From a virus (taxonomy: Duplodnaviria; Caudoviricetes), in the IMG/VR virus record IMGVR_UViG_3300031860_000069, positions 1-38,837 of that record: DNA of 38,837 nt; one strand, written 5' to 3'. Shown here one piece after another: positions 105-24,498 of the stretch; position 1 is the first letter of the stretch; the number at the start of each line of letters is the position of its first letter. The translations under genes were made by a program, and so were the position numbers. A model generated the notes under the pieces. That model did no database searches, was not told the origin of the DNA, and saw only the letters and a program-made list of their open reading frames with translations.

Positions 105-1571
105 TCAGGCGGCGAGCGATGTCTTGGCGACGCCGCTGGTGATCGACTCGATCTCCGAGTCCTCGATGATCTCGCGGACCATCTGCATGACACTGTCCCA
201 ATCGCCGGGAACCGGCTGCTTGACCAGTCGCATGCTCGGATACCACGGGGTGTCGTCACGCTCGGTAAGCCAGCGCCAGCAGTGCCAGTTCGCCAGCATC
301 ACGATCGTCGGCCGGCCAAGCGCACCCGCCAGGTGCACCACCGAGGTGTCGACCGATAGGACCAGGTCGACCTGCATCAACGCCGCCGCCGTGTCGGCGA
401 AGTCACCCAGGACCCCGGAGAGATCGCCGAACCCCGAGCGCAGGCCGTCGCGTTGGATGTCGCCGGCGCGCTCGCCCTTTTGCAGCGAGACGAAGGCGAG
501 CTGCGGCATCTCCGCCAGACGCATCAGGTGCTTGAAGGGCATCGAGCGACGCATGTCGGGGATGTAGCCGGAGGACCCGGCCCAGACCACGCCGACCATC
601 AGCTGGACCCCCGGCGGCTTGAGAACCGGGATACCCAGACCGGTATCGGGGGCGCGCAGATATGGCGCCGACGGCAGGGTGTCGAGCGTGGTTTGCAGGT
701 GCAGCGGCACCGACATCATCGGGCAGTGGTAGTGCGCCGGCGGCGGCGGCCCGTCGACCAGGACGACCTCGTCGGCGAGGCCCGAGATGCTGATCAGCCG
801 CATCAGCGGTTGCGGCACCGCGGCGATGACATGCGCCCCGCCGGCGCGCAGCTGCGGCAGAAACCGGCAGAATTGCAGCGTGTCGCCAAAGCCCTGCTCG
901 TGATGAACGATGATCGTCTTGCCCTCGAGGTCCTCGCCGTCCCAACGCGGGATGCCGCTGTCCCACACCGGGTATTTCGCCAGGTCGTCCCAGCGCGCCT
1001 CGTGGTGCAGCAGGCCTTCGGGTAACTCACCGCAGGCGAGCAGGCCGATGCCGAGGTCGCGGCGGATCCGCTGTTCCTCGGGGGCCAGGTCACGGGCCCT
1101 GCGAAAGCACTCGACGGCTTGTGTGGGCTTGCCGGCGGCGACCCGCGCCAGGCCGAGGTTGTGCCACAGCCCGGCGACGCTAAGCGGGTCGATATCGGCG
1201 CCAAGGGCTTTCTTTTCGCCGACGATCTTGAGCGCCGCCATCTGCGCGGCTCCGGCCTCGACGTAACGATCGGCGCGAAACAGCGCGTTGCCGAGGTTGC
1301 CCAGATAAGCCGGGTTTTGCGGCTCGAGGTTGACCGCGCGCTGCGCCAAGGCGACCGCAGCATCGAATTGCCGGCGGTCGCCAACGATGCACGCCAGGTG
1401 GGTCAGCGCCGCGTGATGATTGGGGTCGAGGCGCAGTGCCGAGACAAAGCAATGCTCGGCCGCACCGAGATTGCCGCGGTCCTCATATTCCTTGCCCGAC
1501 AGAAAGTAGCGGTGCGCCGTCGGAATGAACTTGCCGTCATCGGCTGGCGCGGTCAGCGGCGCATGGATCAC
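105..1571 (-). CDS. TPR-repeat glycosyltransferase (GT-B, GT9/heptosyltransferase-like C-terminus)
   Basis: N-terminal TPRs; W-DGEDLEGKTIIVHHEQGFGDTLQFCRF; VGVVWAGS; DFADTAAALMQVDLVLSVDTSVVHLAGALGRP; WRW..R.DTPWYPSMRL; GTGA overlap with upstream gene. Confidence 0.85.
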   Translation of the reverse strand: MIHAPLTAPADDGKFIPTAHRYFLSGKEYEDRGNLGAAEHCFVSALRLDPNHHAALTHLACIVGDRRQFDAAVALAQRAVNLEPQNPAYLGNLGNALFRADRYVEAGAAQMAALKIVGEKKALGADIDPLSVAGLWHNLGLARVAAGKPTQAVECFRRARDLAPEEQRIRRDLGIGLLACGELPEGLLHHEARWDDLAKYPVWDSGIPRWDGEDLEGKTIIVHHEQGFGDTLQFCRFLPQLRAGGAHVIAAVPQPLMRLISISGLADEVVLVDGPPPPAHYHCPMMSVPLHLQTTLDTLPSAPYLRAPDTGLGIPVLKPPGVQLMVGVVWAGSSGYIPDMRRSMPFKHLMRLAEMPQLAFVSLQKGERAGDIQRDGLRSGFGDLSGVLGDFADTAAALMQVDLVLSVDTSVVHLAGALGRPTIVMLANWHCWRWLTERDDTPWYPSMRLVKQPVPGDWDSVMQMVREIIEDSEIESITSGVAKTSLAA

Positions 1572-1996
1572 TCGCCGCGCTCCGCGTCGACCTCGTGCTC
1601 CGCAGCCTCGAGCTCTGCCTCGGGCGCGTCCTCAAAGGCTTGCCCTACGGCATGGGTCTCAACGCTTTCAGCTGCGGCGGTATCGACCTCTGTCTGCTCC
1701 TCCGGCAGCACTTCGCAGCCAACCCGGCGCAGCGCGGCCACGTCGTGAATATCGATGTCACGGATCACCCGGTTCTCGTCGGCGTAATAGGAATTGCCGC
1801 TCACCAGGTGGAACGACTGCCCGGCAACACGCGCCAGCATCTTCAGTGGTTCAGATCCCATTGGTTCAGATCCTTTTGCGGGAATTGGTTCAGACCCTCT
1901 CTCGGGAGGGAGGTCGGGCAGCAGCCCGACCAGTTGTTTGCCGCCCGGCAGCCATCGTGCGATGACGCGACGGATCTCGCGGCAGGGACAGCCCAT
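1568..1996 (-). CDS. Hypothetical protein with GSEP repeats, SG.SY..D motif domain and acidic tail
   Basis: ORF coupled to the TPR-GT; motif shared with ORFs at 15489, 15905, 22739 and 24495. Confidence 0.6.
   Translation of the reverse strand: MGCPCREIRRVIARWLPGGKQLVGLLPDLPPERGSEPIPAKGSEPMGSEPLKMLARVAGQSFHLVSGNSYYADENRVIRDIDIHDVAALRRVGCEVLPEEQTEVDTAAAESVETHAVGQAFEDAPEAELEAAEHEVDAERGE
1847..1896. repeat. Three copies of TGGTTCAGA(T/C)CC (encodes GSEP x3)
   Basis: Copies at about 1847, 1862 and 1886. Confidence 0.8.
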
Positions 1997-2024
1997 GTGC
2001 TAAGGTCTCCGTGCTGCAGCCTGC

Positions 2025-2059
2025 GAAAGGCGGGCCGGGTTGGGACCCGCCTTTCTTTA
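2025..2059. terminator. Hairpin GAAAGGCGGG...CCCGCCTTTC, possible (bidirectional) terminator
   Basis: 10-bp inverted repeat just after the stop of 2065..2496; T-tract on the plus side. Confidence 0.55.
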
Positions 2060-2064
2060 TGCCG

Positions 2065-2496
2065 CTAGGCCAGCCCGCCGCTGCGTTTGTCGCCTTCGGC
2101 GAGCACCCGGGCGAATTGCCGATTGCCGAGTGCTACGCCTTTAGCCTGATATTCGGCGCGTTCATCGGCGCTCATGCGCGCGACAAACATGCCGCAGTGG
2201 AACGTGCGGCAGGCGAGCGGCCGGCGTTCGTAGATCGTGCACCCGGTCTCGCCCAGATAGACACAGCCGCCATCGGGACCGCGCTTGAGCAATTTGCCGT
2301 CGGCCTCGGTCTGGTATTGCGAGGCGTCATCCCAGGGCAGCAGATACACGCCCAGATGGCAGCACGCGGTGCACGTACCGCAGTCGACTGCATGCGCCGG
2401 CGGCGGTTCGTCGGCCACTGGCGACGGTATGACCTGGGCCTGCGCCAGCTCGCCACCGATTGCCTTGAGCTGGGCGGCGAACGAGAGCAGGTCCAT
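2065..2496 (-). CDS. YkgJ-family (CxxCxxCC) cysteine-cluster protein
   Basis: CGTCTACC ... CVYL...GCTIYERRPLACRTFHC. Confidence 0.85.
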   Translation of the reverse strand: MDLLSFAAQLKAIGGELAQAQVIPSPVADEPPPAHAVDCGTCTACCHLGVYLLPWDDASQYQTEADGKLLKRGPDGGCVYLGETGCTIYERRPLACRTFHCGMFVARMSADERAEYQAKGVALGNRQFARVLAEGDKRSGGLA

Positions 2497-2499
2497 CGG

Positions 2500-3102
2500 C
2501 TAATGCCGGGTGGCCCAGAACGCCGCCAGTTCAACGGCGTCGCCATTGAACCGGCTGAGATCGCAGAACCCGTTGTCGCCGGGCACTCCAGGCACGACCC
2601 CTTGGTCGGTGTATTGCCACAGGGTATAATTGGACCAACCGAGCGGCGGCACCGGACGAGTGCCGTACTCGGGCAGCCATAACTGACACTTCGAGAGCAC
2701 GCGGTTTGGCAGACCGGTGCCGATGCCGTCTGGCCCATAGCGGTTGATGTAGAGCAGCGGCAAGGTGCCGCGAACCATGCCCAGCCGAGTGACGATCTCC
2801 GCCGTCTGAGCGACGGTGATCGTGTTGCTGCCATTCGCCTCGACATCGAGGGCGAGGAAGGGCAGGCATGAGACGAGCTGCAGAAAATGCGCGGCTTGCG
2901 CGGCCGGTGGGTTCGCATCGCAGAAATGATAGACTGCGTAGGGAAGGTCGACGCGCTCGGCACCGCGCAGATTGGCGAAAAACTCAGGGTCGACCCAGGT
3001 GTGGCCCTCCGTCGCCTTGATGATCACGCCGTCGACGAGCCCGGAAGCCTTGACTGCGTCCCAATCGATTGTTCCATCCCAATGGCTAATATCGATGATC
3101 AT
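2500..3102 (-). CDS. GH25 muramidase (endolysin)
   Basis: IDISHWDG, IIKATEG, YHF, LDVE, LWLPEY, LWQYTDQG, DLSRF. Confidence 0.92.
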   Translation of the reverse strand: MIIDISHWDGTIDWDAVKASGLVDGVIIKATEGHTWVDPEFFANLRGAERVDLPYAVYHFCDANPPAAQAAHFLQLVSCLPFLALDVEANGSNTITVAQTAEIVTRLGMVRGTLPLLYINRYGPDGIGTGLPNRVLSKCQLWLPEYGTRPVPPLGWSNYTLWQYTDQGVVPGVPGDNGFCDLSRFNGDAVELAAFWATRH

Positions 3103-3106
3103 TGGG

Positions 3107-3286
3107 TCACCCCCAGGAACACTTGCCGGTGCATGCGGTGCAGTTGGTCTCGCACTCGGCGCAGCTGCCGATTTCCTCGCCCTTCAAATTGACGTGCTTT
3201 CGCTCTTGGGATTTGGCAGTCTCGCGTCGTAGCTGGATCATGCGGGCATGGATCGTCTCAAATTCGTCGGCGGCGCGTCTGCTCAC
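3107..3286 (-). CDS. 59-aa protein with Cys-rich C-terminus (not in ORF track)
   Basis: GTG start with AAGGA RBS; MSRRAADEFETIHARMIQLRRE...GSCAECETNCTACTGKCSWG; stop 4 nt before the endolysin start. Confidence 0.6.
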   Translation of the reverse strand: MSRRAADEFETIHARMIQLRRETAKSQERKHVNLKGEEIGSCAECETNCTACTGKCSWG

Positions 3287-3302
3287 GGGGGTATCCTTGG
3301 AA

Positions 3303-3500
3303 ATGCTGAAAACTTACGACCTTGAGGTCGAGGTGCGGGGGCGCTACACGATGCGCGTCCAGGCAGTGGACGACGTTGCCGCGCGCGATCTTGCCCGCGC
3401 TTTTCTCGACAAACCCAGGGAACTGAGCAGTGTCGTGCAAGTGACCGGTCGCCGGCCCTTTGATGTGATCTCGCTTGGTATGCCCGTGGAGGTCGAATGA
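3303..3500 (+). CDS. Small hypothetical protein (beta-beta-alpha motif)
   Basis: MLKTYDLEVEVRGRYTMRVQAVDDVAARDLA; ATGA overlap with next ORF. Confidence 0.55.
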   Translation: MLKTYDLEVEVRGRYTMRVQAVDDVAARDLARAFLDKPRELSSVVQVTGRRPFDVISLGMPVEVE

Positions 3501-3694
3501 CTGCAGCCACACGTCAGCCCGGTTACTATTGGGTCAAAGAGCGAGAGCAGGGTTGCGCTTGGCAGATCGCACACTGGAACCCGCACGCCGCGCTCGTCAT
3601 GCCGGGTTGGTGGATCGCTGGCCGGATTAGCGGCGAATACAGCGACGAGTCGTTTGCCGAGATCGACGAGCGTCAGCTCAAGAGGCCCGAATGA
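3497..3694 (+). CDS. Small phage hypothetical protein
   Basis: RQPGYYWVK...WQIAHW...EIDERQL; ATGA overlaps on both sides. Confidence 0.65.
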   Translation: MTAATRQPGYYWVKEREQGCAWQIAHWNPHAALVMPGWWIAGRISGEYSDESFAEIDERQLKRPE

Positions 3695-4221
3695 CCGTCG
3701 AACGGATGTCGGTCGAACAGCTGGAAAAGTGGCGCGCCGATCCCGGCTGGACCGCGATCACGCTCGAGGTGATGCCGCATACTGCGGTCACCGAGTCGTT
3801 TCCCGACCGCGACCTCGACGAGGCGCTGCGCGAGTTCGAGACCCAGATGAAGATCACCGAGGAGCTGAGGAAAGATCTCGCCTTCTACGCCGGCATGCGG
3901 CGCCAGACGGTCCGGCAGCTCGCCCCGGCAGTGGCGCGCTTTGACAAGAGCGCGATCTCAAACTGCGGGGTTGCCGCACTCTGGTGCGTGCTCAATCACC
4001 CGAACGACCAAGGCGCGATGCGGCTGAAGATGGACGCGCTGCGAGCGGAGGGCTTAGCCCCGCATTTCACGCTGTGCCGCGGCCCGGGCCAGACGGCGAC
4101 CTTTGGGACGGCACTCGGCGACCGCTATGTCGACATCCGTCGCGACGTGCAGCACCGCGTCGGCGCGAACAGGACGATCTTTGCGACAAGGCCCTATCCA
4201 AAGGCGCCGTCCTACATTTGA
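3691..4221 (+). CDS. Hypothetical protein
   Basis: 176-aa ORF, GC3-rich codons, coupled to the previous ORF. Confidence 0.65.
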   Translation: MTVERMSVEQLEKWRADPGWTAITLEVMPHTAVTESFPDRDLDEALREFETQMKITEELRKDLAFYAGMRRQTVRQLAPAVARFDKSAISNCGVAALWCVLNHPNDQGAMRLKMDALRAEGLAPHFTLCRGPGQTATFGTALGDRYVDIRRDVQHRVGANRTIFATRPYPKAPSYI

Positions 4222-4418
4222 GCTGGGTCTTCGCCGCTCGCATCAGCGGTTGTCGCCGCACCAGCGGTCCGACCGAACGCGTCTGTGTTCGCCCGGGCCG
4301 GCGGGTCAAACCGCTCGGCACCCGGCGAGGGGAACTGCGTCACCTGGCCGTCGGTCGCCACATACATCTTGATGCCGAGGCTGTCGGCGACGCGTTGCGC
4401 TTTTTCTTGTGGAGTCAT
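4212..4418 (-). CDS. Small hypothetical protein
   Basis: 68 aa, GGAG RBS, ATGA overlap. Confidence 0.5.
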   Translation of the reverse strand: MTPQEKAQRVADSLGIKMYVATDGQVTQFPSPGAERFDPPARANTDAFGRTAGAATTADASGEDPAQM

Positions 4419-4513
4419 GGTGTTTTACTCCGCTGAGCCGCCCGCTGGCGACATTCCTTCTGTGCGCGTTTCAACCGACGCTTTGCGGCGTGGCGCTGGC
4501 GCGAGCGCTTCAT
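4415..4513 (-). CDS. Very basic 32-aa peptide
   Basis: MKRSRQRHAAKRRLKRAQKECRQRAAQRSKTP; GGAG upstream, ATGA overlap downstream. Confidence 0.35.
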   Translation of the reverse strand: MKRSRQRHAAKRRLKRAQKECRQRAAQRSKTP

Positions 4514-4519
4514 GCGGCT

Positions 4520-4684
4520 CTACTCCGAGAGAAAGCTGAGCAGCTTCACAACAACATCAAAGGCGACACCCTTGACGTTGCCGGCGACCAGTGCCGAATA
4601 AAATTCTGCCAGATCGGCGCGCGTCTCTAGCTTGATGGTGGCGCCACGCTTTGCGCTGGTGTCTTGTTCAACTGTGATCGCCAT
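4520..4684 (-). CDS. 54-aa hypothetical protein
   Basis: MAITVEQDTSAKRGATIKLE...; TGATG overlap with the methyltransferase stop. Confidence 0.5.
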   Translation of the reverse strand: MAITVEQDTSAKRGATIKLETRADLAEFYSALVAGNVKGVAFDVVVKLLSFLSE

Positions 4685-5259
4685 CAGGCGACCACGCCTT
4701 CGAGGGTCATCGTCTCAAGCTGCAGAAACCCCGGTGGCATGCGCCCGTCGTTTTCGAGGTCGCGCAATTCGGGGTCGCTGCTCTGTCCAATCAGGTGCTG
4801 AGTGATGCTGGCAAAGCCGGCGCCGACCAACGCGCGGTGCAGCAGTGACACGCTGTAGATGAACTGGTGGCCAAAGCCATTGGCCAAGTTGACCCCGACA
4901 TCGAGCGCGGTCTTCATGCCGAAATGCTGTTTCGCCCAAGCGACGTAGCGCCAGTCAGTGTCGGTCAGCTGCTCAGCCGGGCCGCATAGCCGCTGGATGA
5001 ACGCGCGATCGGGGCACGAGATGCGGATCCGGCCACCCGGCTTCATGACCCGGTGGCACTCGGCGAGCATGGTCAAGCCGCCGGCGTGCGGGACATGCTC
5101 GATCATGTGCTCGCTAAAGGCGTAATCGAACTCGCCGTCGGCAAACGGAAAGTGCTGTGTCGCATCCATGCGCAGGATGTCGGGCCGCCACGGGTTGAGG
5201 TCAGTGTTGGTCCAACCCGGCAGAGGATGGTTGCCGCAGCCAATGTGCAGTTTTTTCAT
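4684..5259 (-). CDS. Class I SAM-dependent methyltransferase (type 11-like)
   Basis: KLHIGCG..PLPGWTNTDL; FSEHMIEHV; RVMKPGGRIRISCPD. Confidence 0.88.
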   Translation of the reverse strand: MKKLHIGCGNHPLPGWTNTDLNPWRPDILRMDATQHFPFADGEFDYAFSEHMIEHVPHAGGLTMLAECHRVMKPGGRIRISCPDRAFIQRLCGPAEQLTDTDWRYVAWAKQHFGMKTALDVGVNLANGFGHQFIYSVSLLHRALVGAGFASITQHLIGQSSDPELRDLENDGRMPPGFLQLETMTLEGVVA

Positions 5260-5834
5260 GGTGCGGTGTCCCTGATGAACACAAGACCGGACTCTGAAAA
5301 ATATTTCGGCCCGGTTTCGGCGTGGGCGATCGTGCGGTAGAGGTCGTTATCAGTGGCCAGCGTGTAGCCCATCTGCTGAACGTGCTTTACCCAATATTCC
5401 TTGGGCTGCAGGTTGACATGATGATGGCCCCCGTCCACCCCCGGCAGGCAATGCGTCATCGCGATGATGCGGCCATTGCTCAGCGTCTTGATCAGCGACT
5501 CGAGATAGCACTCCTCAATGTGCTCGACGACCTCGACGCAGAGCACGAGGTCGACAGGCATCGTGTAGGGACCAGCCTTGAGGTCGTGCAACGCGATCGG
5601 GAAGACTGCGCGTTCCACATTGAGCGGCAGACCATCGATCCCGTGAGCGTAGACGCCTTGACGATTGAAAAACGCGACCGCGTGGCCTTCCCCGCAGCCG
5701 ACGTCCAACACCGAGCGGACGCCGAACCTGTCGATCAGATAGCGCCATAGCGTCGGGGTAAAGCTGCAGCTGTCGCCGCCGCGTAGGTTACCGCCGAGAT
5801 CCGGCCTCGCGCGATCGACGACACAGAAATCCAT
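5256..5834 (-). CDS. Class I SAM-dependent methyltransferase
   Basis: SVLDVGCGEG; DLVLCVEVVEHI; HHVNLQPKEYW; start re-called to MDFCVV at 5834 (AAGGAGG RBS). Confidence 0.85.
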   Translation of the reverse strand: MDFCVVDRARPDLGGNLRGGDSCSFTPTLWRYLIDRFGVRSVLDVGCGEGHAVAFFNRQGVYAHGIDGLPLNVERAVFPIALHDLKAGPYTMPVDLVLCVEVVEHIEECYLESLIKTLSNGRIIAMTHCLPGVDGGHHHVNLQPKEYWVKHVQQMGYTLATDNDLYRTIAHAETGPKYFSESGLVFIRDTAP

Positions 5835-5856
5835 CACGCGGCCTCCTTGGGGTTGC

Positions 5857-6690
5857 TCATCGCCACGGCTCCCCGTCGGCTTTGCCAAACCACGGTTCGC
5901 CAAGGGCATCGTTCTCCTGTTCGATCGCTTGGCAGAACTGGCGGAAGACCTCGTGGCCGTTGGGCTGGGTCGCTTCCCAGCGCTTGAGCCCGTCGACGAT
6001 GTCGTAGAGCGCGCGCAGCAGCCCGACCGCCTGGACGTAGGGGTCGGCGCCGACCGGGACCAAGCCGATCTGATGCCGGGCAAAAATCGCCAGATCCGCC
6101 GGCAATTTCGCCCCGCTGCGCTCCGGCCGCGAGGTGTAGCGGTTGGTCTTCTCGAGGTAGGCCGCGACATCGGGATGGGAGAGGTGATCGAGCCAGATGC
6201 CCTCGACCTTGACCCGCTGCCGGCACTCGGGATCGACGACCGCGGAGGCGTGTACCTCAGTGGGGTAGTGGATCATGCCGCGGCGATAGAGGGCCGGCCG
6301 CAGCTCCTCGGGGTAGCTTCGCGGGTCGAACCGCCCGAGGATGTAATGGCGGATCGGGAGGTAGAAGACATCCGCCTCGGGGCATTTCGCGATGACCTCG
6401 CCGATCCCCTCGGGTGCCGTGGGCGAGAGGATCTCGTCGTCGTCGAGGCAGATGATCCACTCGTGCGAGCACAGGCTCTGCGCGTAGGCCCGGGTATCCT
6501 CGACGACCGGGGTCCACGGCACCAGCTCATAACGGTCGGCGAGCTCGCGCGCGACCATGGGGGTCTCGTCCGTCGAAGACTTATCGACGACGATGAGCTC
6601 GTCGACAAAACGCACCCGCCGCAAGCAAGCGCGAAGTAATTCCGCCCGGTTATAGGCGATCACGAAGGCGCTCATCTTTGGCGGCCTCAT
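5857..6690 (-). CDS. GT2 glycosyltransferase, WaaE/LgtF (beta-1,4-glucosyltransferase)-like
   Basis: SAFVIAYN...DELIVVDKSSTDET...EWIICLDDDE...YLEKTNRYT; ATGA overlap with the CmcI-like gene. Confidence 0.82.
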   Translation of the reverse strand: MRPPKMSAFVIAYNRAELLRACLRRVRFVDELIVVDKSSTDETPMVARELADRYELVPWTPVVEDTRAYAQSLCSHEWIICLDDDEILSPTAPEGIGEVIAKCPEADVFYLPIRHYILGRFDPRSYPEELRPALYRRGMIHYPTEVHASAVVDPECRQRVKVEGIWLDHLSHPDVAAYLEKTNRYTSRPERSGAKLPADLAIFARHQIGLVPVGADPYVQAVGLLRALYDIVDGLKRWEATQPNGHEVFRQFCQAIEQENDALGEPWFGKADGEPWR

Positions 6691-7343
6691 CGGATCTTCC
6701 GCCAATAACCGTCGGGGTTAAAGGTCACGTTCTGGCCAAAGAAATCGCAATATTCGGCGGCGCGCACATAGTCGACGCGGCGCTCGGCCATGAATTCGTT
6801 GAGCCCGGTCAGCGGTCCGCCGCGGCGGTGCCGGCCGGGATAGAGCTCGTCGGCGTTGCCGTCCTCGACCACGATCATCTCGCCCGGCCGCAGCCAGGGG
6901 TCGAAGAAGTGCAGCACCGCGAGCGTGGTCTCGGGCTCGTGTGAGCTGTCTTCGATCACCAGCAACGGCCGCGCCATCTCACTGGCGAGCCACTGCGGCG
7001 GGATCGTCCTGCCGAGATCGTGTGCGTCACCCTGCAGAAAGGCGAGGCCGGGGATGGTCGTGCTCGGCGGGTTGACGTCGATCGACATCACCATGCAGGG
7101 GGTGATCCCCATCGCTACCTGCATGTCGCGGAACCACAGCGCTGAGCCACCAAAGGCCGAGCCGATCTCGATGATGGTCCGCGGCTTTTCGCGCCACAGC
7201 AGCATCGAGTAGAGCGCCAGGTCAAACGGATCTTTCCAGCAGGGATGGCCCTTGTAGGTAAAATTCTGTGCGCCTTGCTGGATCGCCTCGCGCAGTGCCG
7301 CGTTGCGACGGCCGCCGATCAGCGAGTCGAATTGCGCGGTCAT
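6687..7343 (-). CDS. CmcI / cephalosporin-hydroxylase-family (sugar O-)methyltransferase
   Basis: YKGHPCWKDPFDLALY..LLW..KPRTIIEIGSAFGGSALW; VIEDSSH; VVEDG; TFNPDGY. Confidence 0.88.
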   Translation of the reverse strand: MTAQFDSLIGGRRNAALREAIQQGAQNFTYKGHPCWKDPFDLALYSMLLWREKPRTIIEIGSAFGGSALWFRDMQVAMGITPCMVMSIDVNPPSTTIPGLAFLQGDAHDLGRTIPPQWLASEMARPLLVIEDSSHEPETTLAVLHFFDPWLRPGEMIVVEDGNADELYPGRHRRGGPLTGLNEFMAERRVDYVRAAEYCDFFGQNVTFNPDGYWRKIR

Positions 7344-7555
7344 CAAGCGGTGCCCGCAGCCCCGTCCTGCATGGCGCGCAGGAACACCACAAACTCGGCA
7401 TAGGCCGCGGCAAGGACCTCGTAGAAGGGCAAGATCGTCTTGGCAGTCTCAGCCCTATCCTCGAGGCTCAGCTCGAGGAACACCCCTCTGGCTTGGCTCA
7501 GCGTGCTGCGAATGCGCTCGGCGTCGAGGGGGGTGCCGGGGACCACTGCCATCAT
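7343..7555 (-). CDS. Small hypothetical protein
   Basis: 70 aa, overlaps the neighbouring start and stop codons. Confidence 0.5.
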   Translation of the reverse strand: MMAVVPGTPLDAERIRSTLSQARGVFLELSLEDRAETAKTILPFYEVLAAAYAEFVVFLRAMQDGAAGTA

Positions 7556-16620: not shown

Positions 16621-16626
16621 TATCGC

Positions 16627-18141
16627 TTAGCCGTTGGCGATGTTGCTGATGACGCCCATCGCAAACGGGGCATAGACCGCGAGCACCTCTTCGGCATAGA
16701 CGCCGACCTGGCGCTGACGGGTCACGATCGGCCAATCGATCTGGTAGTAATCCTGACGTGTCTTGATCTCAGCCACGTTCGGCACTTCGTTCGACTGGTA
16801 TTGGATGGGCAGGTTCTCGGCCCAGCCGATGATCGTCCCCGGCGGTACGCGCGGGTGGATCTTGATCGGGATACGCAGCCCGCCATTGATCGCAAACGGG
16901 TTGTAGTAGAACTGCACAACACCGGATGCGGTGACCGTGTACTCGCCGGTGCTCCCATCAGCGGGAGAGTCGTAGCGCAGCAGCGGGGCGGAACTGGTCG
17001 ACAGCACCTTGGTGGTGATGTTCTTCAGCTCCTGGCTGTTGACGTAGAGCACGGTCGGGCTGAGCTCGAAATTGTCCCACATCTTCTGGAACATCGTGTC
17101 GATCTCGCTGACCGAGCCGCGGCCAGAGGCGGTCAACGTCGTGCCGGTCCCGGCGGTGCCGGTCGCCAGCATGTTGACATAGGCGTTGCTGCCGCTCTTC
17201 AGCGCGGTGGTCAGGAGCCCGTCATAGGCGTAGCTCGAGTTCGCCGAATTGTCGGCGGTGACCGCCGAGGCGGCTTGGTTGCCGGTCGCCAGCGGGACTG
17301 ACTGGACATAGCTGTTGATCGTGGTGATCGCCTGCAATGTCTCGGTGCCGGCGCTGTTGACCGCGGAGATGAACCAGGCGTAGGCAACCGCACCCTGGAC
17401 GGCGGTGGTCGTCATCGCCAGCGCGTTGGTGGAGATCGTCACCAACTGCCCAGCGCTCTCGAGCGAGATGTTGGACGAGCCGCCCGACAGGGTGTAGTTC
17501 TTGCCATCGGCGCCGGTCACAGACTTGCTGGTCGCCACACCGGCGGCGACTGAAGAGTTCTGATACCCTTCGAGGGTCAGCGCCACCACCTTGACGTAAT
17601 ACGTGCCAGTCGGCAGCGTGCTGCTGGCGTTGGTCTGCGCCGAGAGGGTCGGGGTTGCCGGGACGCCCAAGGTCATTGAGGCGTTGCCGGCGAGGATCGC
17701 CATCTCTTCCTTGAGCATCATCTTTTGCAGCAGACGGAAAGTCATCCGTGCCTGGATGTCTTCGAACTGGCGGCCAGCCGAAATCGCCTCAAAGGTCGCC
17801 GCGTCTTCTTCGCCGATCGTGACGTAAGTCGCGGACTTGTTCGAGGTGTTGTAGCTCATCTGGCCACTGCGCTGACCCTCTGGGACCCAGCCCATTGCGT
17901 CAAAGCCGGAGCCAATGATCGCGTTGACCTGCCGCCAGTTTGTTGCAGCACCCGTGCCGCCACCAACCCGCGGCATCGCATTGCGGATCGGTGTCACAAA
18001 CGGATAGAGGTTTTTGGCCGGTGCCTGCAGGTCATAAGCGAGCAGGCCCGTCGCCGTGGAAATCGACTTCGCCAGGTCGTCATTCGGCTGCGCAAGCGCA
18101 GACTTCATCAGATCCAGCGATTCTTGGGTGATCGGGTTCAT
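16627..18141 (-). CDS. Major capsid protein with Ser/Thr-rich beta-sandwich insertion
   Basis: 504 aa after the protease; YDLQAPAKNLYP; TRQDYYQIDWP; GVYAEEVLAVYAPFAMGVISNI; strong RBS and codon bias. Confidence 0.85.
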   Translation of the reverse strand: MNPITQESLDLMKSALAQPNDDLAKSISTATGLLAYDLQAPAKNLYPFVTPIRNAMPRVGGGTGAATNWRQVNAIIGSGFDAMGWVPEGQRSGQMSYNTSNKSATYVTIGEEDAATFEAISAGRQFEDIQARMTFRLLQKMMLKEEMAILAGNASMTLGVPATPTLSAQTNASSTLPTGTYYVKVVALTLEGYQNSSVAAGVATSKSVTGADGKNYTLSGGSSNISLESAGQLVTISTNALAMTTTAVQGAVAYAWFISAVNSAGTETLQAITTINSYVQSVPLATGNQAASAVTADNSANSSYAYDGLLTTALKSGSNAYVNMLATGTAGTGTTLTASGRGSVSEIDTMFQKMWDNFELSPTVLYVNSQELKNITTKVLSTSSAPLLRYDSPADGSTGEYTVTASGVVQFYYNPFAINGGLRIPIKIHPRVPPGTIIGWAENLPIQYQSNEVPNVAEIKTRQDYYQIDWPIVTRQRQVGVYAEEVLAVYAPFAMGVISNIANG

Positions 18142-18163
18142 CGTTTAAACTCCGATTGGGCAA

Positions 18164-18185
18164 TAAAAAACCCGCCAGCGGCGGG
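18164..18185 (-). terminator. Terminator-like hairpin between protease and capsid genes
   Basis: CCCGCC-GCT-GGCGGG-TTTTTTA on the minus strand. Confidence 0.65.
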
Positions 18186-18209
18186 CCATCGGGATTGCGG
18201 GTTAAAAAA

Positions 18210-20705
18210 TCAGCTTCGCGGAGCAACACGCATCGGGCCGGGCCCGTCCGTAAAGCCGTGCATGACCAGCGGCTTCCGATAGCTCCGCTTGATCAATGTC
18301 TTGGTCACCTCCTCGTCGGACATCTGCGCCAAGGCGTCGGTGACGTCGGTCGGCCCGTTCGAGCCGCCATTGTCCTGGCCCTTGGTGAGCCCGCTCCCGC
18401 CAGAAACGCGCTGAATGGCGCGCGGCGGCAGTGGGGTTTGCGCGATGTCCTCGACGCGGGCGCGCAGGTCCTGGTTTTGTTTGGCGAGGGCTGCCATGCC
18501 GGCGGCCATCTCTTGCACCGTCTTGGCGATTTCGGCCAAGGTCGGGTCTGCAGTCGGCGTCGCCGGTGCTTCAGTGGTCTTGGCGAGATCGCCTTCGGCG
18601 GTCGCGGCATCCTTGCCGGGCTCGCCAAGGTCAGTGCCCTCGCCGCCGGCAGTTGCTTGCGTGCCCTGGCTCTCGGCCTCGCCGGCGGGCTCGGGTGAGC
18701 CGCCCGGCTGCTCATTGGCCGCCTTGCAGGCCATCGCCATGCCGTCGCACTTGGTCAGGTGGAAATGTGCGGTGTCGACCGCGGCCATCGTGGCCCCGCT
18801 GTGGCGCGAGGGCTTGACGCCATCGGCCTTGCAAGTGGCCCCGTCTGAGAACGCGGCGAGCGCCTTATGGGCGATGTCGATCAGTGGCCGGTGGCCGGCA
18901 CCCGCCTTCTCGACTTCCGTGCCGGGAAGGGCGAGCAATGTCTCGAGGACCTCGAGCGCAGTGCTGGTCTTGCGAGCGTCGCCCGGATACTGGGGCATTG
19001 ACGGCACCGCACCGGTCGCGTTCGGCACGCTGGTGCTGGCGTTGCGGCCGGTGTCGGTGGTGCTGTTCTGGGTGGCTGAGCCGGCGCCCTGCTCGGGGTT
19101 GCCATCGGTCAGCATCTCGCGGCCGTCGGCGCCGAGATCGGTGGCGCCGGCGTCAAGCACCACCTTGTGGCAGTCGGCCAGGTGCATGCGATCACCCTTG
19201 GTGACCGATGCCATGTTCATGGCCTTGTGCACCGCCAATGCGGCGAGATCGAGTAAATGTTGGTCGCGGGCGCTGTGCCTAGCGCCCGCCTTCAGGAGAG
19301 TAGTCACTAGCTGCTCCGCTGTTTGTGGATCGGGAATGGATTTCAGTAATGCGTCGGCGATCGCCTCCAATGCCTTGCTGGCGAGGCCGACTGGCTCGTC
19401 GATTTCGGTGCCCTCGAGCACCTCGGCGGTCTCCTCAGCGACCAAGTCGCGGAGGAATTGACAGAGCTGCGCGCAGCAATCGCGCGCTTTGGCGGGGGCG
19501 CTCGAGGAGTCGCCCTCCATGGCCGCTTCGAACTCGAGGCTTTCCTCGATGCGGCGTAGCGCGGCGATCATCATTGCGATGTCGCCGATGTCCAACAGGG
19601 ACTTTGTTATATCGGCGCGCGAGGCCTTTTCACTGGCGCTCGGCGGCCCGTCACTATCGATGACGTCTTTCCAAGCCGCGACAATGCGCGACTTGATCGC
19701 GCTCAGATGCTCATTGGAATACTTGCCGGCGTTCTTGGGCTTGCTGATGTAATTCCACGCGGCGCGGATGTGGCGCTCGGTGTCGATCGGGTATCTCTTT
19801 TTGCCGTCGGACTGGTAGCCAGGGTCGGCATATTTGACATCGCCATAAGGTTCGCTGCCGTCGCCCGGCGCGTCGCCGCCTTTGGCAACGAACTGGCCAT
19901 CGACCAGCGCGCCCACCGCGTCCGACGGAATAGACGCCGTGAGCGTGGTTGTGCCCGTCTTGGCGACCGCCCCGCTGGTGGTTTCGATCGCCACCTCGCC
20001 GGCTTCGATCGATGCCAGTGCCGCGTCCATTGCCACTTGCAGCGCCGTGGCGCCCTCGGCGGCGTGCTTCTCGATCGCGGCCGCAGCCGCTGCGGGATCG
20101 ACGGGATCGCTCTTGGCGAGCGGCTCGTCGGTGGTCGCCGGCAACGCAGAGCGCTTGGCGATGCACTTGATCGCGTCGGCCTTGGCGCGGTGCTGGTGTG
20201 CGGCGTCGCCACATGCCCAAATCTGCACCGGCGCATGAGGTGCGGCAGAACCTGCCGCTTGGGGTTCTGCCATGGTCGCTTTCCAACAATCAAAAATCGC
20301 TTCGGGATTGGCCGGCCGGTCGACCAGTGAGATCTCGTTGAGGACGAGGCCAGTGATCATCTTGGGATTGCCCGCTTCGCGCTTGGTCACGCGACCGCCG
20401 ATGCTGAACCCCCTGTAGACCTGGTTCTTGACCTTGCTGACCGCGGTCGGGTCGACGATGTGCGCAACGATGCGCGTGATGTTGTCGTCGCCGACCTCGG
20501 CCTCGAGCGCGGTCCCAGCGGCCTGCAACTGGTGCATCTCGCGGACCGCGGGGAATTTCATGTAGTCGGGCAAAGCCTCGCGCATCGCTTCGGCTTTGAC
20601 GACTTCCCCCTGGTCGTCGGTCGACTCCGTGCTGGCGATGCCGTGCACGCGCACGGTCCCGTCAGCTTGCGCCTCGACCTTTTCGATGGCACCGTATAGA
20701 CGCAT
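18210..20705 (-). CDS. Prohead protease fused to DUF6582-like domain and scaffold
   Basis: VHGIASTE..DDQGE; REMH; YRGFSIGG; EISLVDRPANP; YGDVKYADPG...RYPIDTE.HIRAAWNY; C-terminal coiled coil. Confidence 0.85.
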   Translation of the reverse strand: MRLYGAIEKVEAQADGTVRVHGIASTESTDDQGEVVKAEAMREALPDYMKFPAVREMHQLQAAGTALEAEVGDDNITRIVAHIVDPTAVSKVKNQVYRGFSIGGRVTKREAGNPKMITGLVLNEISLVDRPANPEAIFDCWKATMAEPQAAGSAAPHAPVQIWACGDAAHQHRAKADAIKCIAKRSALPATTDEPLAKSDPVDPAAAAAAIEKHAAEGATALQVAMDAALASIEAGEVAIETTSGAVAKTGTTTLTASIPSDAVGALVDGQFVAKGGDAPGDGSEPYGDVKYADPGYQSDGKKRYPIDTERHIRAAWNYISKPKNAGKYSNEHLSAIKSRIVAAWKDVIDSDGPPSASEKASRADITKSLLDIGDIAMMIAALRRIEESLEFEAAMEGDSSSAPAKARDCCAQLCQFLRDLVAEETAEVLEGTEIDEPVGLASKALEAIADALLKSIPDPQTAEQLVTTLLKAGARHSARDQHLLDLAALAVHKAMNMASVTKGDRMHLADCHKVVLDAGATDLGADGREMLTDGNPEQGAGSATQNSTTDTGRNASTSVPNATGAVPSMPQYPGDARKTSTALEVLETLLALPGTEVEKAGAGHRPLIDIAHKALAAFSDGATCKADGVKPSRHSGATMAAVDTAHFHLTKCDGMAMACKAANEQPGGSPEPAGEAESQGTQATAGGEGTDLGEPGKDAATAEGDLAKTTEAPATPTADPTLAEIAKTVQEMAAGMAALAKQNQDLRARVEDIAQTPLPPRAIQRVSGGSGLTKGQDNGGSNGPTDVTDALAQMSDEEVTKTLIKRSYRKPLVMHGFTDGPGPMRVAPRS

Positions 20706-20736: not shown

Positions 20737-21060
20737 ATGGACGAACAGACACTCGATGCGATTAAGGATCAGATCCTCGCGTCATTTCCGTTGGAGAGCC
20801 GGTGGTACGACTGCCGGAACGACACGGTCGGCACCGTGGTTCTGCACTTCAAACCGCGCGGGATTGTTCTGCGCGAGACCTGCGGCGACTTGGTGCGCTA
20901 CCGCTACGATCAGTTGCTCGCTGGTCGCCTCACCGAGCGAACCGCTAAACCGCACGAGGCCTTTGACGCCTATCGCGAGGGTTTGAAGCGCATCGACCAG
21001 CAATACACAGCGGCGCTGGCTGCTGCCGGCCTCAACCCCACGGTCTGGGACGATGCCTAA
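20737..21060 (+). CDS. Hypothetical protein
   Basis: 107-aa ORF, first of a coupled plus-strand run. Confidence 0.6.
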   Translation: MDEQTLDAIKDQILASFPLESRWYDCRNDTVGTVVLHFKPRGIVLRETCGDLVRYRYDQLLAGRLTERTAKPHEAFDAYREGLKRIDQQYTAALAAAGLNPTVWDDA

Positions 21061-21241
21061 AGCGATGAGTGCCGACGAGAGGCGGCCCACCCCGGAAGCG
21101 CTGAGCCGGGCCGAGCACGCCTACAACCTGTGGCTCGCTGGCACTGGCACACCCGAGGATTTTTTGCGACCGGCGCAGCGGATCGCGCTGATCTGTGAGA
21201 TCGCCGAGGCGCTCGATGACTTCAGACGAGCAAATGAGTGA
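21053..21241 (+). CDS. Hypothetical protein
   Basis: 62 aa, overlaps its neighbours. Confidence 0.55.
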   Translation: MPKAMSADERRPTPEALSRAEHAYNLWLAGTGTPEDFLRPAQRIALICEIAEALDDFRRANE

Positions 21242-21849
21242 TAAGAGGTTTCGAGTTCGCGAACTGCCGGAGCTCGGCTTTGACGAAATCAAAATCACCA
21301 CCGACGCCCGATGATGGACCGAAGAACCTGCTCGAAGAGTGGATGAACCCGCCGCCCTCGATATTCTGGCGGCTCGACGAGAACCACACGCCGGTCAGGT
21401 GCGAGACCTTTGAGGAATATTTCGCGTGGGGTCGGGAGTGCGGCGAGAGCGGTGCGGGCTTTCCGCCGCACATCGGCTACACGCACATCGGCAATGGTGA
21501 AGGCGTTCTGATCTCGACGGTCTTTCTGGTGTCGCCAGCTGGCGTTGGCATCATCGAAAATCCGCTGTTCTTCGAAACGATGGTGTTTGGCGGTCCGCTC
21601 GACCAGCTCCAGACGCGCTACCCGACCTGGGACGAGGCGGCCGCCGGTCACCAGCGGATATGCGAGGAGGTCCGCAAGCTCTTGGCGCTGTCGCCCGAGG
21701 AGTTGAAGGCGCAGATGGATCAGCGCGCCAAAGGCCGCTTTCGTTTTATTCGCGAGCAAGCGCTGGCCATTGGCCTGCCGGAACACATCGCCGATCAGCT
21801 TGGGCGCGTGGTTTCACTCAGCCGCTACCGCAAGCGGCGGAAGCGTTGA
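21238..21849 (+). CDS. Phage hypothetical protein
   Basis: ISTVFL...PLFFETMVFGG...RYPTWDEAAAGH; start uncertain. Confidence 0.65.
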   Translation: MIRGFEFANCRSSALTKSKSPPTPDDGPKNLLEEWMNPPPSIFWRLDENHTPVRCETFEEYFAWGRECGESGAGFPPHIGYTHIGNGEGVLISTVFLVSPAGVGIIENPLFFETMVFGGPLDQLQTRYPTWDEAAAGHQRICEEVRKLLALSPEELKAQMDQRAKGRFRFIREQALAIGLPEHIADQLGRVVSLSRYRKRRKR

Positions 21850-21850
21850 C

Positions 21851-22231
21851 GTGGTCGCGTATAGCTTCAAGCCCCGCTTTGCCGAGCCGATCCTAGCCGG
21901 CACCAAGGGCGGCACTATCCGCGCCGATCGCCGGCGCCATGCGCGGCCGGGCGAGGAGATGCAGCTCTATGTCGGCATGCGAACCAAGCAATGCCGATTG
22001 ATCACACGCACGACCTGCATCGCGATCGAGCCGATTGAGCTCGATTTCGAGTTTCACTTTATCCGGTGGCCACAGGCGCGGGTGATCGTTTCCACGACCG
22101 ATCTCGATGCCCTGGCGGTGTTCGACGGGTTCCAATCCTTCGAGGCGATGGAGGATTTTTGGTTGACGACGCACCACGCCCCGCAGTTCCAGGGCTGGCA
22201 CATCCGCTGGTTGCCCCGTGAAAATCTTTAA
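21851..22231 (+). CDS. ASCH/PUA-like domain protein
   Basis: AYSFKPRFAEPILAGTKGGTIR...PGEEMQLYVGMRTK...AVFDGF.SF. Confidence 0.72.
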   Translation: MVAYSFKPRFAEPILAGTKGGTIRADRRRHARPGEEMQLYVGMRTKQCRLITRTTCIAIEPIELDFEFHFIRWPQARVIVSTTDLDALAVFDGFQSFEAMEDFWLTTHHAPQFQGWHIRWLPRENL

Positions 22232-22439
22232 GATTGCCGTCGAAGTGCACGGCAAGCGGCGGATCTGGCGCGTGCACACGACCGATGCGGAAACGGCGCA
22301 AACGGTCGCTCAAGATTTCTTGCCGATGCTGGACCCGGCGGCAAAATTCGGCACGCCCGAGGAGGAGGTCGATGGATTATTCTCTCGACTGAAAGCCCTC
22401 TCAGGCCGCCTCCTCAATCGGCTGAGTCGCCGCCAGTAG
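22218..22439 (+). CDS. Small hypothetical protein (beta-beta-alpha motif)
   Basis: KIFKIAVEVHGKRRIWRVHTTDAETAQTVA. Confidence 0.5.
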   Translation: MKIFKIAVEVHGKRRIWRVHTTDAETAQTVAQDFLPMLDPAAKFGTPEEEVDGLFSRLKALSGRLLNRLSRRQ

Positions 22440-22739
22440 ATTTTTGGCCGCCTGGCGCTGCAGCTCCACCGCCATTTGCCATGCACCATCTTCAGTCGCC
22501 GGGTTTAGCACCTTGGCGGCGCCGTAGAGGTCGTTGATCTGCGGCCGGCAGTTGCGGATCTCGACCCGCACGACATGACTTTTGTCGACGCCGCTGCGTG
22601 CCGCATACTCGGGGTAACTCAAGCCCAATTTGCGCCGCTGCTCGCGCAGCAGTCGCGCGATCTCGCGATCGAACAGATGTGACAGCTGGGGACGCTGGCG
22701 GGCAGCCGCGGCGAGCAGCTTGAGCGGATCGGGCTTCAC
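22401..22739 (-). CDS. XRE-family HTH regulator
   Basis: LREQRRKLGLSYPEYAARSGVDKSHVVRVE...PQINDL. Confidence 0.75.
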   Translation of the reverse strand: MKPDPLKLLAAAARQRPQLSHLFDREIARLLREQRRKLGLSYPEYAARSGVDKSHVVRVEIRNCRPQINDLYGAAKVLNPATEDGAWQMAVELQRQAAKNLLAATQPIEEAA

Positions 22740-23092
22740 TAAGCTGCGGTCCCTGTGATGTCGACCCAGCCGGTCGAGCTGCGCTGGTTGCCGACGAAGT
22801 AGACTTCCTTTGCAAGTGTCGAGTCGTGAAACGGCAAAGCCAGTCGGGGAAATGGTGCGAGGTTGTTGATTGCCCCGGTCAGCGCCGTCGCCGGCTGCGT
22901 CGCCGGCCGATCGGTTGTCGCACCGCTCGCCCCGACGAGACGAACCTCGGCATTAACGCCTTGCAGAGACTGTGCATCGGCCGGTGTGACGCCGGTGATG
23001 ATGCCGGCGGCATTGGGGGTGTAGCTGACACCCGCGGCACTAACCGCATTGGCGCTCGCCGGGATCACCAGGAACACATAAGTAAGAGCCAT
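22739..23092 (-). CDS. Putative virion structural/decoration protein
   Basis: Ala/Thr/Gly-rich; GVSYTPNAAGIITGV; GATTDRP...FHDSTL...WVDITG C-terminal motif typical of phage fibres. Confidence 0.65.
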   Translation of the reverse strand: MALTYVFLVIPASANAVSAAGVSYTPNAAGIITGVTPADAQSLQGVNAEVRLVGASGATTDRPATQPATALTGAINNLAPFPRLALPFHDSTLAKEVYFVGNQRSSTGWVDITGTAA

Positions 23093-23094
23093 GA

Positions 23095-24498
23095 CTAGGA
23101 AACCTCCGTCAGTTCGGGAAAGCTGAAATCATCCAAGGCGCCATGCAGTTCGAGGTCGCGGACACGGTTGCACACGAGTTGGCGCAATTGCGCACAGGGC
23201 TCGGACCAGTCGCCTGGTGCCGCTTGACGCAATAGCCGCATGGTCGGATACCAAGGCGTTCGATCGGTATGAAAGCCCCAGCGCCAGCACGGCACGTAGG
23301 GCAACAGGCCGACGCAGGGGCGACCCAAGGCGCCGGCCAAATGCAATGGTGCGCTGTCGACCGAGACGATCAGATCGAGGGCTTGCATGTAGGCGGCGGT
23401 GTCGTGCCAATTGCGCAGTTGGCGTGACAGATCCCGGACGAGCACACCTGGGCCGGCTTCAAGCTCGCGCGCCGCAGCGCCGACTTGCAGGCTATAAAGT
23501 GCTGCGCCCGGGATTGCCGCCAGCTCGAGGAGCATGCCGAGCGGCACGATCCTGCGGGCCGAAACCTCGCCGAGCGGCCGCGGCGCCCAGACCAGCCCGA
23601 TCGTGAGTTTGGTCCCCGAAGGGGGTGTCGTGAACCAGGTCGGCGGCGAGTCGAAATAGCGCCGAAAACGCGTCGTTTCCGGCGGCAATTCGACACCGAG
23701 ATGGCGCACATAGGAGCAGATCGGCGAGTGGTAATCGGCCTCCGGCAGGTCGCCCTCGATGTCGAGGGTCCGCCAGCGACCGCGCGCGGCCGCCCGCATC
23801 AGTGACATCAGATCACTCGGTACAGCCAAGCTGATCCTGGCACCGCGCTCGACGAGATCGGGCAGAAACCGGGCGAGTTGAATATCGTCGCCGATACCCT
23901 GGTCGTGGTGCACCAGGATGTGCTTGCCGGCGAGGTCCTCGCCTTGCCATTCGGGGATCCCGAGCTCCCAGACCTGGGTGCGGCCGATCTCGGCAAAGCG
24001 GTGTTCGTAAAGCGCCAGGCCACGCTGGTAGTCGCCCGAGGCGAGCACCGGATAGGCCATCTGCGTGAGGGCCCGGGCATGCTGTACCTCAGAAGGTGCG
24101 GAGCAGACCGCCTCGATAAACCAGCGCTCGGACGCCGCCAGGTCGCCCAAGGCGTAGCAGGCAGCACCGAGGTTGAAGGCGATCTCGTGGTCGCCGGGCC
24201 GCGCGGCGATCGCCGCCTCGAGCCAGCCCCAGGCCTCGTCGTAGCGCTGCATCCGGTAAAGGACGCAGCCCAAGTTCTTCAGCGCGTCGGGGTGCCCGGG
24301 GTCGGCGTCGAGCGCCTTTCGAGCACACACCAGCGCTGCCTCGTGCTGCCCGCGATCGGACAGCAGCGAGGCCACCGAAAACCACGACTCGGGCTGCCCT
24401 GGAGCAGCCCGAAGCCCTTTGGTGTAGTAGGGTAACGCGCCGGCGAGATCACCGGCGACGTGGCGGCTATGAGCCGCCTTGAGCGCGGACGAGGTCAG
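23095..24498 (-). CDS. Second TPR-repeat glycosyltransferase (GT9-like)
   Basis: TPRs; WQGEDLAGKHILVHHDQGIGDDIQ; SVDSAPLHLAGALGRP; TPWYPTMRL; TPR-like reading frame extends 41 codons upstream of the GTG at 24375 to a CTG at 24498. Confidence 0.82.
   Translation of the reverse strand: MTSSALKAAHSRHVAGDLAGALPYYTKGLRAAPGQPESWFSVASLLSDRGQHEAALVCARKALDADPGHPDALKNLGCVLYRMQRYDEAWGWLEAAIAARPGDHEIAFNLGAACYALGDLAASERWFIEAVCSAPSEVQHARALTQMAYPVLASGDYQRGLALYEHRFAEIGRTQVWELGIPEWQGEDLAGKHILVHHDQGIGDDIQLARFLPDLVERGARISLAVPSDLMSLMRAAARGRWRTLDIEGDLPEADYHSPICSYVRHLGVELPPETTRFRRYFDSPPTWFTTPPSGTKLTIGLVWAPRPLGEVSARRIVPLGMLLELAAIPGAALYSLQVGAAARELEAGPGVLVRDLSRQLRNWHDTAAYMQALDLIVSVDSAPLHLAGALGRPCVGLLPYVPCWRWGFHTDRTPWYPTMRLLRQAAPGDWSEPCAQLRQLVCNRVRDLELHGALDDFSFPELTEVS

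Follow-up and report, generated by a model that had tools for sequence, protein, structure and literature searches.

What do genes for sugar chemistry do among the late genes with which a phage builds its particle? The question is raised by IMG/VR record IMGVR_UViG_3300031860_000069, a genome fragment of an uncultured phage that we analysed over its whole length of 38,837 bases (the window). Its minus strand carries terminase, intein-bearing portal, head, connector and lysozyme genes, together with eleven putative sugar-modification genes between positions 105 and 24,498 (Table 1). We consider it probable, at about 0.6, that the phage, late in infection and in the cytoplasm, attaches O-linked glycans to proteins of its own virion. 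This is the best-supported reading of the locus, given the pairing of a transferase gene with that of a predicted head protein, the fold of the transferase family and its recurrence in unrelated phages; a fixed pathway, a gene set tracking the capsid family and Ser/Thr richness as a mark of the acceptors, which a preliminary description of this DNA had put forward or suggested checking, did not stand.

A selected set of sugar genes in the late operon

All eleven genes listed in the preliminary description were recovered within the stated span on the strand of the structural genes, and each overlaps a neighbour by one or four bases on at least one side (upstream side, 8 of 11). The upstream end of the set also held: the second of two glycosyltransferases that join tetratricopeptide repeats (TPRs) to a GT9-type domain (TPR-GT9a and TPR-GT9b) starts at 24,498 with a CTG codon overlapping the TGA stop of the gene for a 230-residue protein. 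Both close relatives that were checked, L002 and G001, retain the CTG, which in G001 follows a stretch rich in purines; this start may hold TPR-GT9b at a low level relative to its neighbour. Two details needed amending. Two stretches of plus-strand genes (3497-4221 and 20737-22439) break up the run, and gmhA, described as lying between the head-tail adaptor and gp10-like genes, adjoins the latter but is parted from the adaptor by a Cys-rich open reading frame (ORF). A further plus-strand island lies at about 9880-10166, and the ORF at 3691-4221 is kept in contig L096.

Ratios of nonsynonymous to synonymous substitution (dN/dS) against orthologues were 0.12-0.55, and all eleven genes are under purifying selection; three structural genes gave 0.13-0.45. 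Together with a GC content equal to that of the rest of the phage (0.62-0.68) and a gene order retained in relatives at 60-95% identity, these ratios indicate that the cluster is not a chance assembly; it is a real, selected, modular glycosylation set in the late operon. A metal-binding CxxCxxCC protein (PF03692; 2065-2496), encoded between lysozyme and TPR-GT9a and also close to the capsid gene of contig L007, could be a twelfth modification gene.

In line with the preliminary description, the products lack an N-terminal hydrophobic stretch, judged by a simple hydropathy scan and not a signal-peptide predictor (the top 19-residue values, 1.8 in GmhA and 1.7 in TPR-GT9b, lie inside soluble folds), and no flippase or polymerase family occurs among the 51 window ORFs scanned. 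Core transferases of lipopolysaccharide (LPS) are cytoplasmic too, so the absence of signal peptides does not separate the rival readings. Within 1-18300, a scan of the cluster strand for sigma-70-like promoters returned nothing over chance, which is a weak test for this host. A serotype-conversion moron of the Gtr type, which would bring a membrane transferase, a flippase, its own promoter and deviant GC, was rejected: the cluster has no such transferase and flippase, no promoter of its own was found and its GC does not deviate.

Table 1 Features of the sugar-modification locus and its surroundings
Feature	Positions	Strand	Remarks
Intrinsic-terminator-like hairpin	64-81	minus	between TPR-GT9a and tail tube gene; consensus scan only
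TPR-GT9a: TPR arm (about 19-195) and GT9-fold transferase	105-1571	minus	QGFGD, DTSVVH motifs; last gene before tail tube
142-aa gene coupled to TPR-GT9a	1568-1996	minus	weak anchor-like domain copy (E 1.3; L096 orthologue 6e-6)
S-adenosylmethionine (SAM) methyltransferase, Methyltransf_11	4684-5259	minus	family scan
SAM methyltransferase, Methyltransf_23	5256-5834	minus	family scan
GT2	5857-6690	minus	family scan
CmcI / rhamnosyl O-methyltransferase family	6687-7346	minus	family scan
Methyltransf_24-like methyltransferase	7552-8226	minus	family scan
2-oxoglutarate (2OG)-Fe(II) oxygenase, StrG/PhyH-like	8414-9064	minus	TIGR04324, weak; HxD...H kept
DUF5672 protein	9061-9741	minus	mostly viral family
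Tail terminator-like gene	10163-10612	minus	family scan
gp10-like tail completion gene	10624-11112	minus	family scan
SIS/GmhA-like isomerase	11109-11723	minus	family scan, zinc ligands
116-aa Cys-rich ORF	11723-12070	minus	between adaptor and gmhA
Head-tail adaptor	12073-12945	minus	family scan
GT4-like glycosyltransferase	14167-15327	minus	weak Pfam hits below cut-offs; relatives start about 70 bases further in
Major capsid protein	16627-18141	minus	position (phrog_13692); 20% Ser/Thr; possible acceptor
117-aa gene with anchor-like domain	22739-23092	minus	directly after TPR-GT9b
TPR-GT9b, 467 aa, CTG start	23095-24498	minus	QGIGD, DSAPLH motifs
230-aa protein: small anchor-like domain and beta-sandwich	24495-25187	minus	21% Ser/Thr; predicted head decoration protein
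C5 DNA methyltransferase	37087-38448	minus	beyond the cluster; bears on DNA modification

TPR-GT9 enzymes combine a TPR arm with a heptosyltransferase-like fold

The structure model of TPR-GT9a (pLDDT 90.7) consists of TPRs and a transferase domain, and the latter superposes on the GT9 structure 3tov with Z 18.0 (rmsd 3.1, 249 aligned). WaaF (1psw; Z 17.6), WaaC (2h1f; 16.7) and the protein heptosyltransferase TibC (15.9) follow, identity being 10-15% across all four, and the whole chain bears a loose likeness to OGT and SPINDLY, protein transferases built of TPRs and GT-B (TM up to 0.39). For TPR-GT9b, the GT9-type fold is taken from its 37% identity to the modelled TPR-GT9a. Both enzymes carry the heptosyltransferase signature D(T/S)(G/A/S)xxH, as defined in the text available from PMC3559599, so that the earlier naming of two TPR-GT9-like transferases is borne out by fold and signature. 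D230, D408 and H413 are invariant in 30 of 30 alignment rows, D230 corresponding to WaaC D13 by aligned ranges, not by residue-level alignment. By pattern, the signature occurs in all 30 rows of one TPR-GT9 alignment and in 48 of the 59 rows of a second, cellular rows included. Compared with WaaC, WaaF and TibC, the enzymes thus share the fold, the position of the catalytic Asp and the D(T/S)xxxH signature, but they add the TPR arm, lack a conserved iron-binding Cys cluster and fall far below the NCBIfam cut-offs for LPS heptosyltransferases (23.2 of 185.3 bits for WaaC; 18.2 of 170.2 for heptosyltransferase III).

In overall architecture, soluble with an N-terminal TPR part, a C-terminal GT-B part and no hydrophobic N-terminus, the TPR-GT9 enzymes resemble FlmG, whose TPR part binds the acceptor while the GT-B part picks the donor, according to the portions available of PMC7591256 and 10.1101/2022.03.25.485807. 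In these same portions, the acceptor of FlmG is flagellin and the sugar it adds is pseudaminic or legionaminic acid, whereas the 51 window ORFs include no family of either pathway and no flagellin. In contig L109, whose proteins are 100% identical to those of the window, TPR-GT9a is directly followed by genes for a tail tube-like protein of 248 aa, a chaperone-like protein and a tape measure of 2572 aa; the tube and chaperone were named by position because Pfam gave no match. In each of the four contigs that span this junction, the tube gene immediately follows TPR-GT9a; a fifth has a methylase in between.

TPR-GT9 pairs with the gene for a predicted head decoration protein

The 230-residue protein has 137 homologues and no Pfam family. 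Its model (pLDDT 94.5) shows a small N-terminal domain followed by a beta-sandwich, and in Foldseek it resembles uncharacterised phage proteins (TM 0.60). From position and fold, we predict it to be a head decoration protein of the virion, and it is the likeliest candidate for the acceptor of TPR-GT9b. The N-terminal domain of about 50 residues recurs weakly in the 117-aa and 142-aa genes; with copies in the 230-aa and 142-aa genes, each TPR-GT9 therefore follows a gene that carries it, and the domain may serve as a virion anchor. Terminase large subunits of distant relatives (L122, L123, L203) end with this domain as well.

The pairing recurs in phages with 31-56% capsid identity. At distant loci, the 230-aa gene lies directly before TPR-GT9 in five of eight and within the head module in two, and was not found in one. 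A search that started from the 230-aa gene yielded nine viral loci, of which seven have TPR-GT9 and two, L203 and L204, do not; the pair was seen in 9 of 16 metagenome loci, the other seven of which end within about 215 bases. A 421-aa fusion of decoration protein and TPRs (P0215) was set aside as a frameshifted record.

We propose that both soluble TPR-GT9 enzymes would grip structural subunits with the TPR arm and add the first sugar, probably heptose, with the GT9 fold. TPR-GT9b would act on the 230-residue protein encoded directly before it; the target of TPR-GT9a, given its location just ahead of the tube gene, would be a component of the tail or neck. As donor, the enzymes would use ADP- or GDP-heptose of the host, and phage GmhA would increase the amount available. 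GT4, DUF5672 and GT2 would add further sugars, and the four methyltransferases and the StrG-like oxygenase would tailor them. The benefit would lie in an altered particle surface, through adsorption to soil or slime, protection from proteases or grazers, or receptor range. If the virion proteins are O-glycosylated at all, heptose is somewhat favoured as the first sugar.

A stable pair with an exchangeable cassette

Relative G001 (63.8 kb; capsid 88% identical to that of the window) likewise has TPR-GT9a ahead of the tube (70%) and TPR-GT9b behind the 230-aa gene (63%), and it retains GT4 (70%), the oxygenase (67%) and DUF5672 (39%). It has no gmhA, GT2, CmcI or other methyltransferase of the window, and UDP-galactopyranose mutase (Glf) and a DUF4422 gene occupy that slot, which contradicts the idea of eleven genes as one fixed pathway. 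The CheckV rating of G001 as 100% complete is doubtful, as its ORF list holds no replication or integrase genes, and absences there therefore carry little weight. Among distant phages, TPR-GT9 is accompanied by DegT, an acetyltransferase and DUF5672 (L122), by an epimerase and DUF5672 (L126), or by DUF5672 and a methyltransferase (L129). Judged by gene content, the stable part is TPR-GT9 with the 230-aa gene, often joined by DUF5672, while gmhA, GT2 and the methyltransferases are exchangeable.

The gene set does not track the capsid family, a co-occurrence that the preliminary description had proposed examining: TPR-GT9 was missing from all 80 sister loci on chromosomes and present in only four of the 80 distant ones. 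A first capsid scan placed 9 of 80 loci (88-100% identity) in the clade of the window, and in the other 71, flanks of up to 10 kb held neither TPR-GT9 nor the 230-aa gene. The 80 chromosomal loci contained neither of these genes nor gmhA, and nine had a GT4-like gene in the tail region. In the scan centred on distant capsids (80 loci), the 230-aa gene also occurred in four; among the 36 loci spanning the region, two had both genes, one the 230-aa gene only, one TPR-GT9 only and 32 neither (Fisher p 0.014). The TPR-GT9-only case is contig L122, whose partner lies just outside the flank, and three of the four distant TPR-GT9 loci had been in the query, L340 alone being new. The TPR-GT9 module is an accessory in this capsid family, yet it nearly always comes with the 230-aa gene.

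Phage GmhA and the supply of heptose

The capsid protein is 66-85% identical to those of elements in Stellaceae-type alphaproteobacterial genomes. In the tree, a five-row capsid clade of the window phage (support 98/97) is nested among these elements, and a quick tree puts gmhA of four Stellaceae-type genomes as sister group to the gmhA clade of the phages (SH-aLRT 97). The nesting and the sister position together suggest that the host is probably a Stellaceae bacterium of soil.

The best matches of phage GmhA in the Protein Data Bank are GmhA (E 2e-46). It keeps the four zinc ligands (H69, E73, Q181 and H189, equivalent to His64, Glu68, Gln175 and His183), and presence of the Glu68 and His183 equivalents led us to reject DiaA as its identity. 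Its score against TIGR00441 is 168.9 of 209.45 bits, and host gmhA genes within heptose operons score 165-176 too. The equivalent of Asp61 is Gln in four and Leu in one of five phage-clade rows (Gln in the window), against Asp in four of four host rows, and the Glu after Gln175 is Gln in five of five phage-clade rows; both depart from the GmhA described in the accessible text of PMC5705639, where the Ala mutant of Asp61, a water-channel residue in the Burkholderia enzyme, keeps 6% activity. Phage GmhA is possibly slower or uncoupled, but is probably not dead, because it is under purifying selection.

The window holds no kinase, phosphatase or nucleotidyltransferase of the heptose pathway, and on this gene content the remaining steps must presumably come from the host. 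Among five Stellaceae-type genomes, HldE exceeds its cut-off in five, GT9 is found in five and gmhA in four. At three of four loci, host gmhA lies between a GHMP kinase and a nucleotidyltransferase-HAD gene (Pfam on two loci), a layout that we take to be a GDP-heptose-type pathway.

For the phage GT2, the best solved relative is GmaR (E 1.3e-12), followed by SunS-type enzymes, all of which we take, partly from general knowledge, to be protein or peptide transferases. A host GT2 that is 28% identical adjoins the host GT9, and WaaE-type GT2 genes lie beside GT9 genes. The DUF5672 protein, whose family recurs beside TPR-GT9 in distant phages, is a putative transferase. TET/JBP was rejected as the identity of the oxygenase: it has no Tet_JBP match, and its profile found no solved relative. 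A literature search for StrG chemistry found no paper.

TPR-GT9 recurs beside virion genes of unrelated phages

The TPR-GT9 profile matched 263 viral stretches, and the analysis went on with the best 80. At 70% identity, loci L128-L195 fall into 26 groups, and we scanned the 19 representatives of at least 9 kb (94 of 126 listed ORFs and two further L187 ORFs). Head or tail genes were present in the TPR-GT9 locus of 14 of the 19, on the same strand in eight and the opposite strand in six, and absent from five. Four more capsid families occur among these groups (phrog_617, 1328, 9953 and 138). In the unrelated phage L187 (1577-11245), a PfkB kinase, a cytidylyltransferase-like gene, SIS, a TPP enzyme, PhyH, radical SAM, GT2 and TPR-GT9 stand just before the head genes. 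The GenBank podovirus MW202512 has a remote TPR-GT9 homologue three genes past the capsid, then FkbM and GalT-like genes. In the L161 group (29 loci) and in L181, L182, L188 and L194, on contigs of up to 300 kb, TPR-GT9 adjoins the major head gene (phrog_138) on the opposite strand.

A more elaborate version of virion glycosylation is tentative, and we regard it as appreciably less likely than its core. The phages may form glycotypes, in which TPR-heptosyltransferases prime the head decoration protein and tail and relatives swap glycan cassettes (O-methyl heptose in the window, galactofuranose or amino-sugar sets in others); GmhA may have shed half-site control, and at least five capsid lineages may have captured TPR-GT9 as protein O-heptosyltransferases.

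Weighing the alternatives

Several observations count against glycosylation of the virion or against heptose as its first sugar. For the 230-residue protein, whose role is inferred from position and fold, Foldseek found among solved structures only weak jelly-roll or BclA-like matches (TM up to 0.35). Its gene occurs without adjacent TPR-GT9 in L203, L204 and L345, and it was mostly TPR-GT9 itself, or queries built from phages with the pair, that led to the paired loci. Ser/Thr richness, offered earlier as a mark of the acceptors, does not discriminate: the capsid fraction is 0.184 (n 11) against 0.185 (n 80) in GT9-less relatives, and that of the tube 0.180 in GT9-bearing (n 8) against 0.186 in GT9-less phages (n 67). 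The signature is broken in L125 and L127, and since it is common to cellular TPR-GT9 it suggests heptose and does not prove it; TPR-GT9 is present on 84 of 101 host-family chromosomes (a tally that includes unpublished G029 and G100). The replaced Asp61 of GmhA and the pairing of TPR-GT9 with other sugar genes (Glf, DegT with acetyltransferase, epimerase) in relatives also tell against it, and the 14 of 19 count stands without a random-gene baseline. Furthermore, heptose genes alone do not indicate protein, because heptosylation of phage DNA has been published (10.1101/2023.12.21.572611, in the part available).

The enzymes could instead act on the host surface (LPS core, flagellin, pilin or S-layer), either to alter it or to keep superinfecting phages out, which we hold unlikely, though the least so of the alternatives. 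The GT9 fold is nearest to LPS heptosyltransferases, the host carries its own GT2 beside GT9, TPR-GT9 is common on host chromosomes, FlmG acts on flagellin in the sources above, and cyanophage sugar genes are usually read as host-modifying, as the accessible part of PMC12801897 has it. However, the genes are coupled to late structural genes, at a time when a change of surface would help least; their GC does not dip, and the scan of part of their strand found no sigma-70-like promoter, a weak argument in this host; a TPR arm is missing from LPS heptosyltransferases; and the pairing with the phage-only 230-aa gene would go unexplained. Hypermodification of phage DNA against restriction, from 5-methylcytosine (5mC) through 5-hydroxymethylcytosine (5hmC) to heptose or other sugars, appears improbable. 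Like the published 5mC/5hmC clusters, the window combines a C5 methyltransferase with a 2OG oxygenase, GT-A and GT-B enzymes and heptose chemistry in one genome; in the related contigs L098 and L121 the methylase lies within the structural operon, and in L121 it immediately follows TPR-GT9a; and in the accessible text of 10.1101/2023.12.21.572611, phage GT-B enzymes put mono- or di-heptose on 5hmC, and such clusters can adjoin structural genes. Unlike those described there, the window oxygenase is StrG/PhyH-like and not TET/JBP, lies 28 kb from the methylase and is absent from distant TPR-GT9 phages. Tet_JBP occurs in none of five records at E 0.1, although the window and G001 records are without replication regions, where a hydroxylase could lie, and no TET/JBP oxygenase stands beside the C5 methyltransferase in the sequenced part. 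The StrG/PhyH-like family is found in one of five relatives and the methylase in the window and G006; G006 and G007 (rated 100% and 93% complete) have the 230-aa gene and TPR-GT9 with neither Tet_JBP nor this oxygenase family. Equally improbable, in our view, are two separate things, namely a TPR-GT9 and decoration pair of unknown chemistry and a loose cassette acting on small molecules or on nothing coherent. The cassette is exchanged between close relatives, small unrelated ORFs, lysozyme and mobile genes are interleaved, and GmhA and GT4 score below family cut-offs; yet purifying selection acts on all eleven genes, the replacement in G001 is again sugar chemistry, and distant phages again have DUF5672 or methyltransferases next to TPR-GT9.

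Relation to known virion glycosylation

Virion glycosylation is proven in few phages. Freeman et al. (2023) reportedly described it in mycobacteriophages. Mycobacteriophage virion glycans are cited in the accessible portions of PMC12619734 and PMC11256854, and there, as proposed for the window, phage-encoded glycosyltransferases serve capsid or tail subunits. The window differs in having TPR-GT9, heptose and O-methyl genes in a late operon of an alphaproteobacterial phage. Full-text literature searches, with most subscription papers outside their coverage, turned up no publication that deals with TPR-GT9 or with heptose on phage virions. If correct, our reading would extend virion glycosylation to Gram-negative soil phages with different enzymes, name a specific enzyme-acceptor pair, testable in E. 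coli as a producer of ADP-heptose, and give a first handle on DUF5672 and on the widespread TPR-GT9 family, a large orphan family in bacteria. Many phage 'LPS biosynthesis' genes counted as host-modifying might then act on the particle instead.

Other features of the phage and its relatives

The sister capsid lineage is mostly a single-copy chromosomal head-tail element, seen in the Stellaceae-type chromosomes L221-L300, L115-L116 and L317-L329, with matches of any identity in 55 of 101 family genomes (including unpublished G040). The same XRE-like regulator lies upstream in 8 of 8 genomes examined and clpB in 5 of 8, and the element has a tape measure of about 510 aa and a DUF2460/BR0599/NlpC tail. 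It is a candidate for an undescribed gene transfer agent; a literature search found no paper linking such an agent with Stellaceae.

The portal gene of the window (30342-34013) contains an intein (Hint and LAGLIDADG), absent in relatives such as G001, and a long C-terminal extension. A tRNA-Ile(GAT) gene at 16265-16341 immediately follows the capsid gene, and a deoxynucleoside monophosphate kinase-like gene (27751-28278) lies within the head region. The gene at 29432-30121, which in several relatives stands immediately after the capsid gene, encodes a 229-aa protein without a family match, and its HELLE motif is presumably zincin-like.

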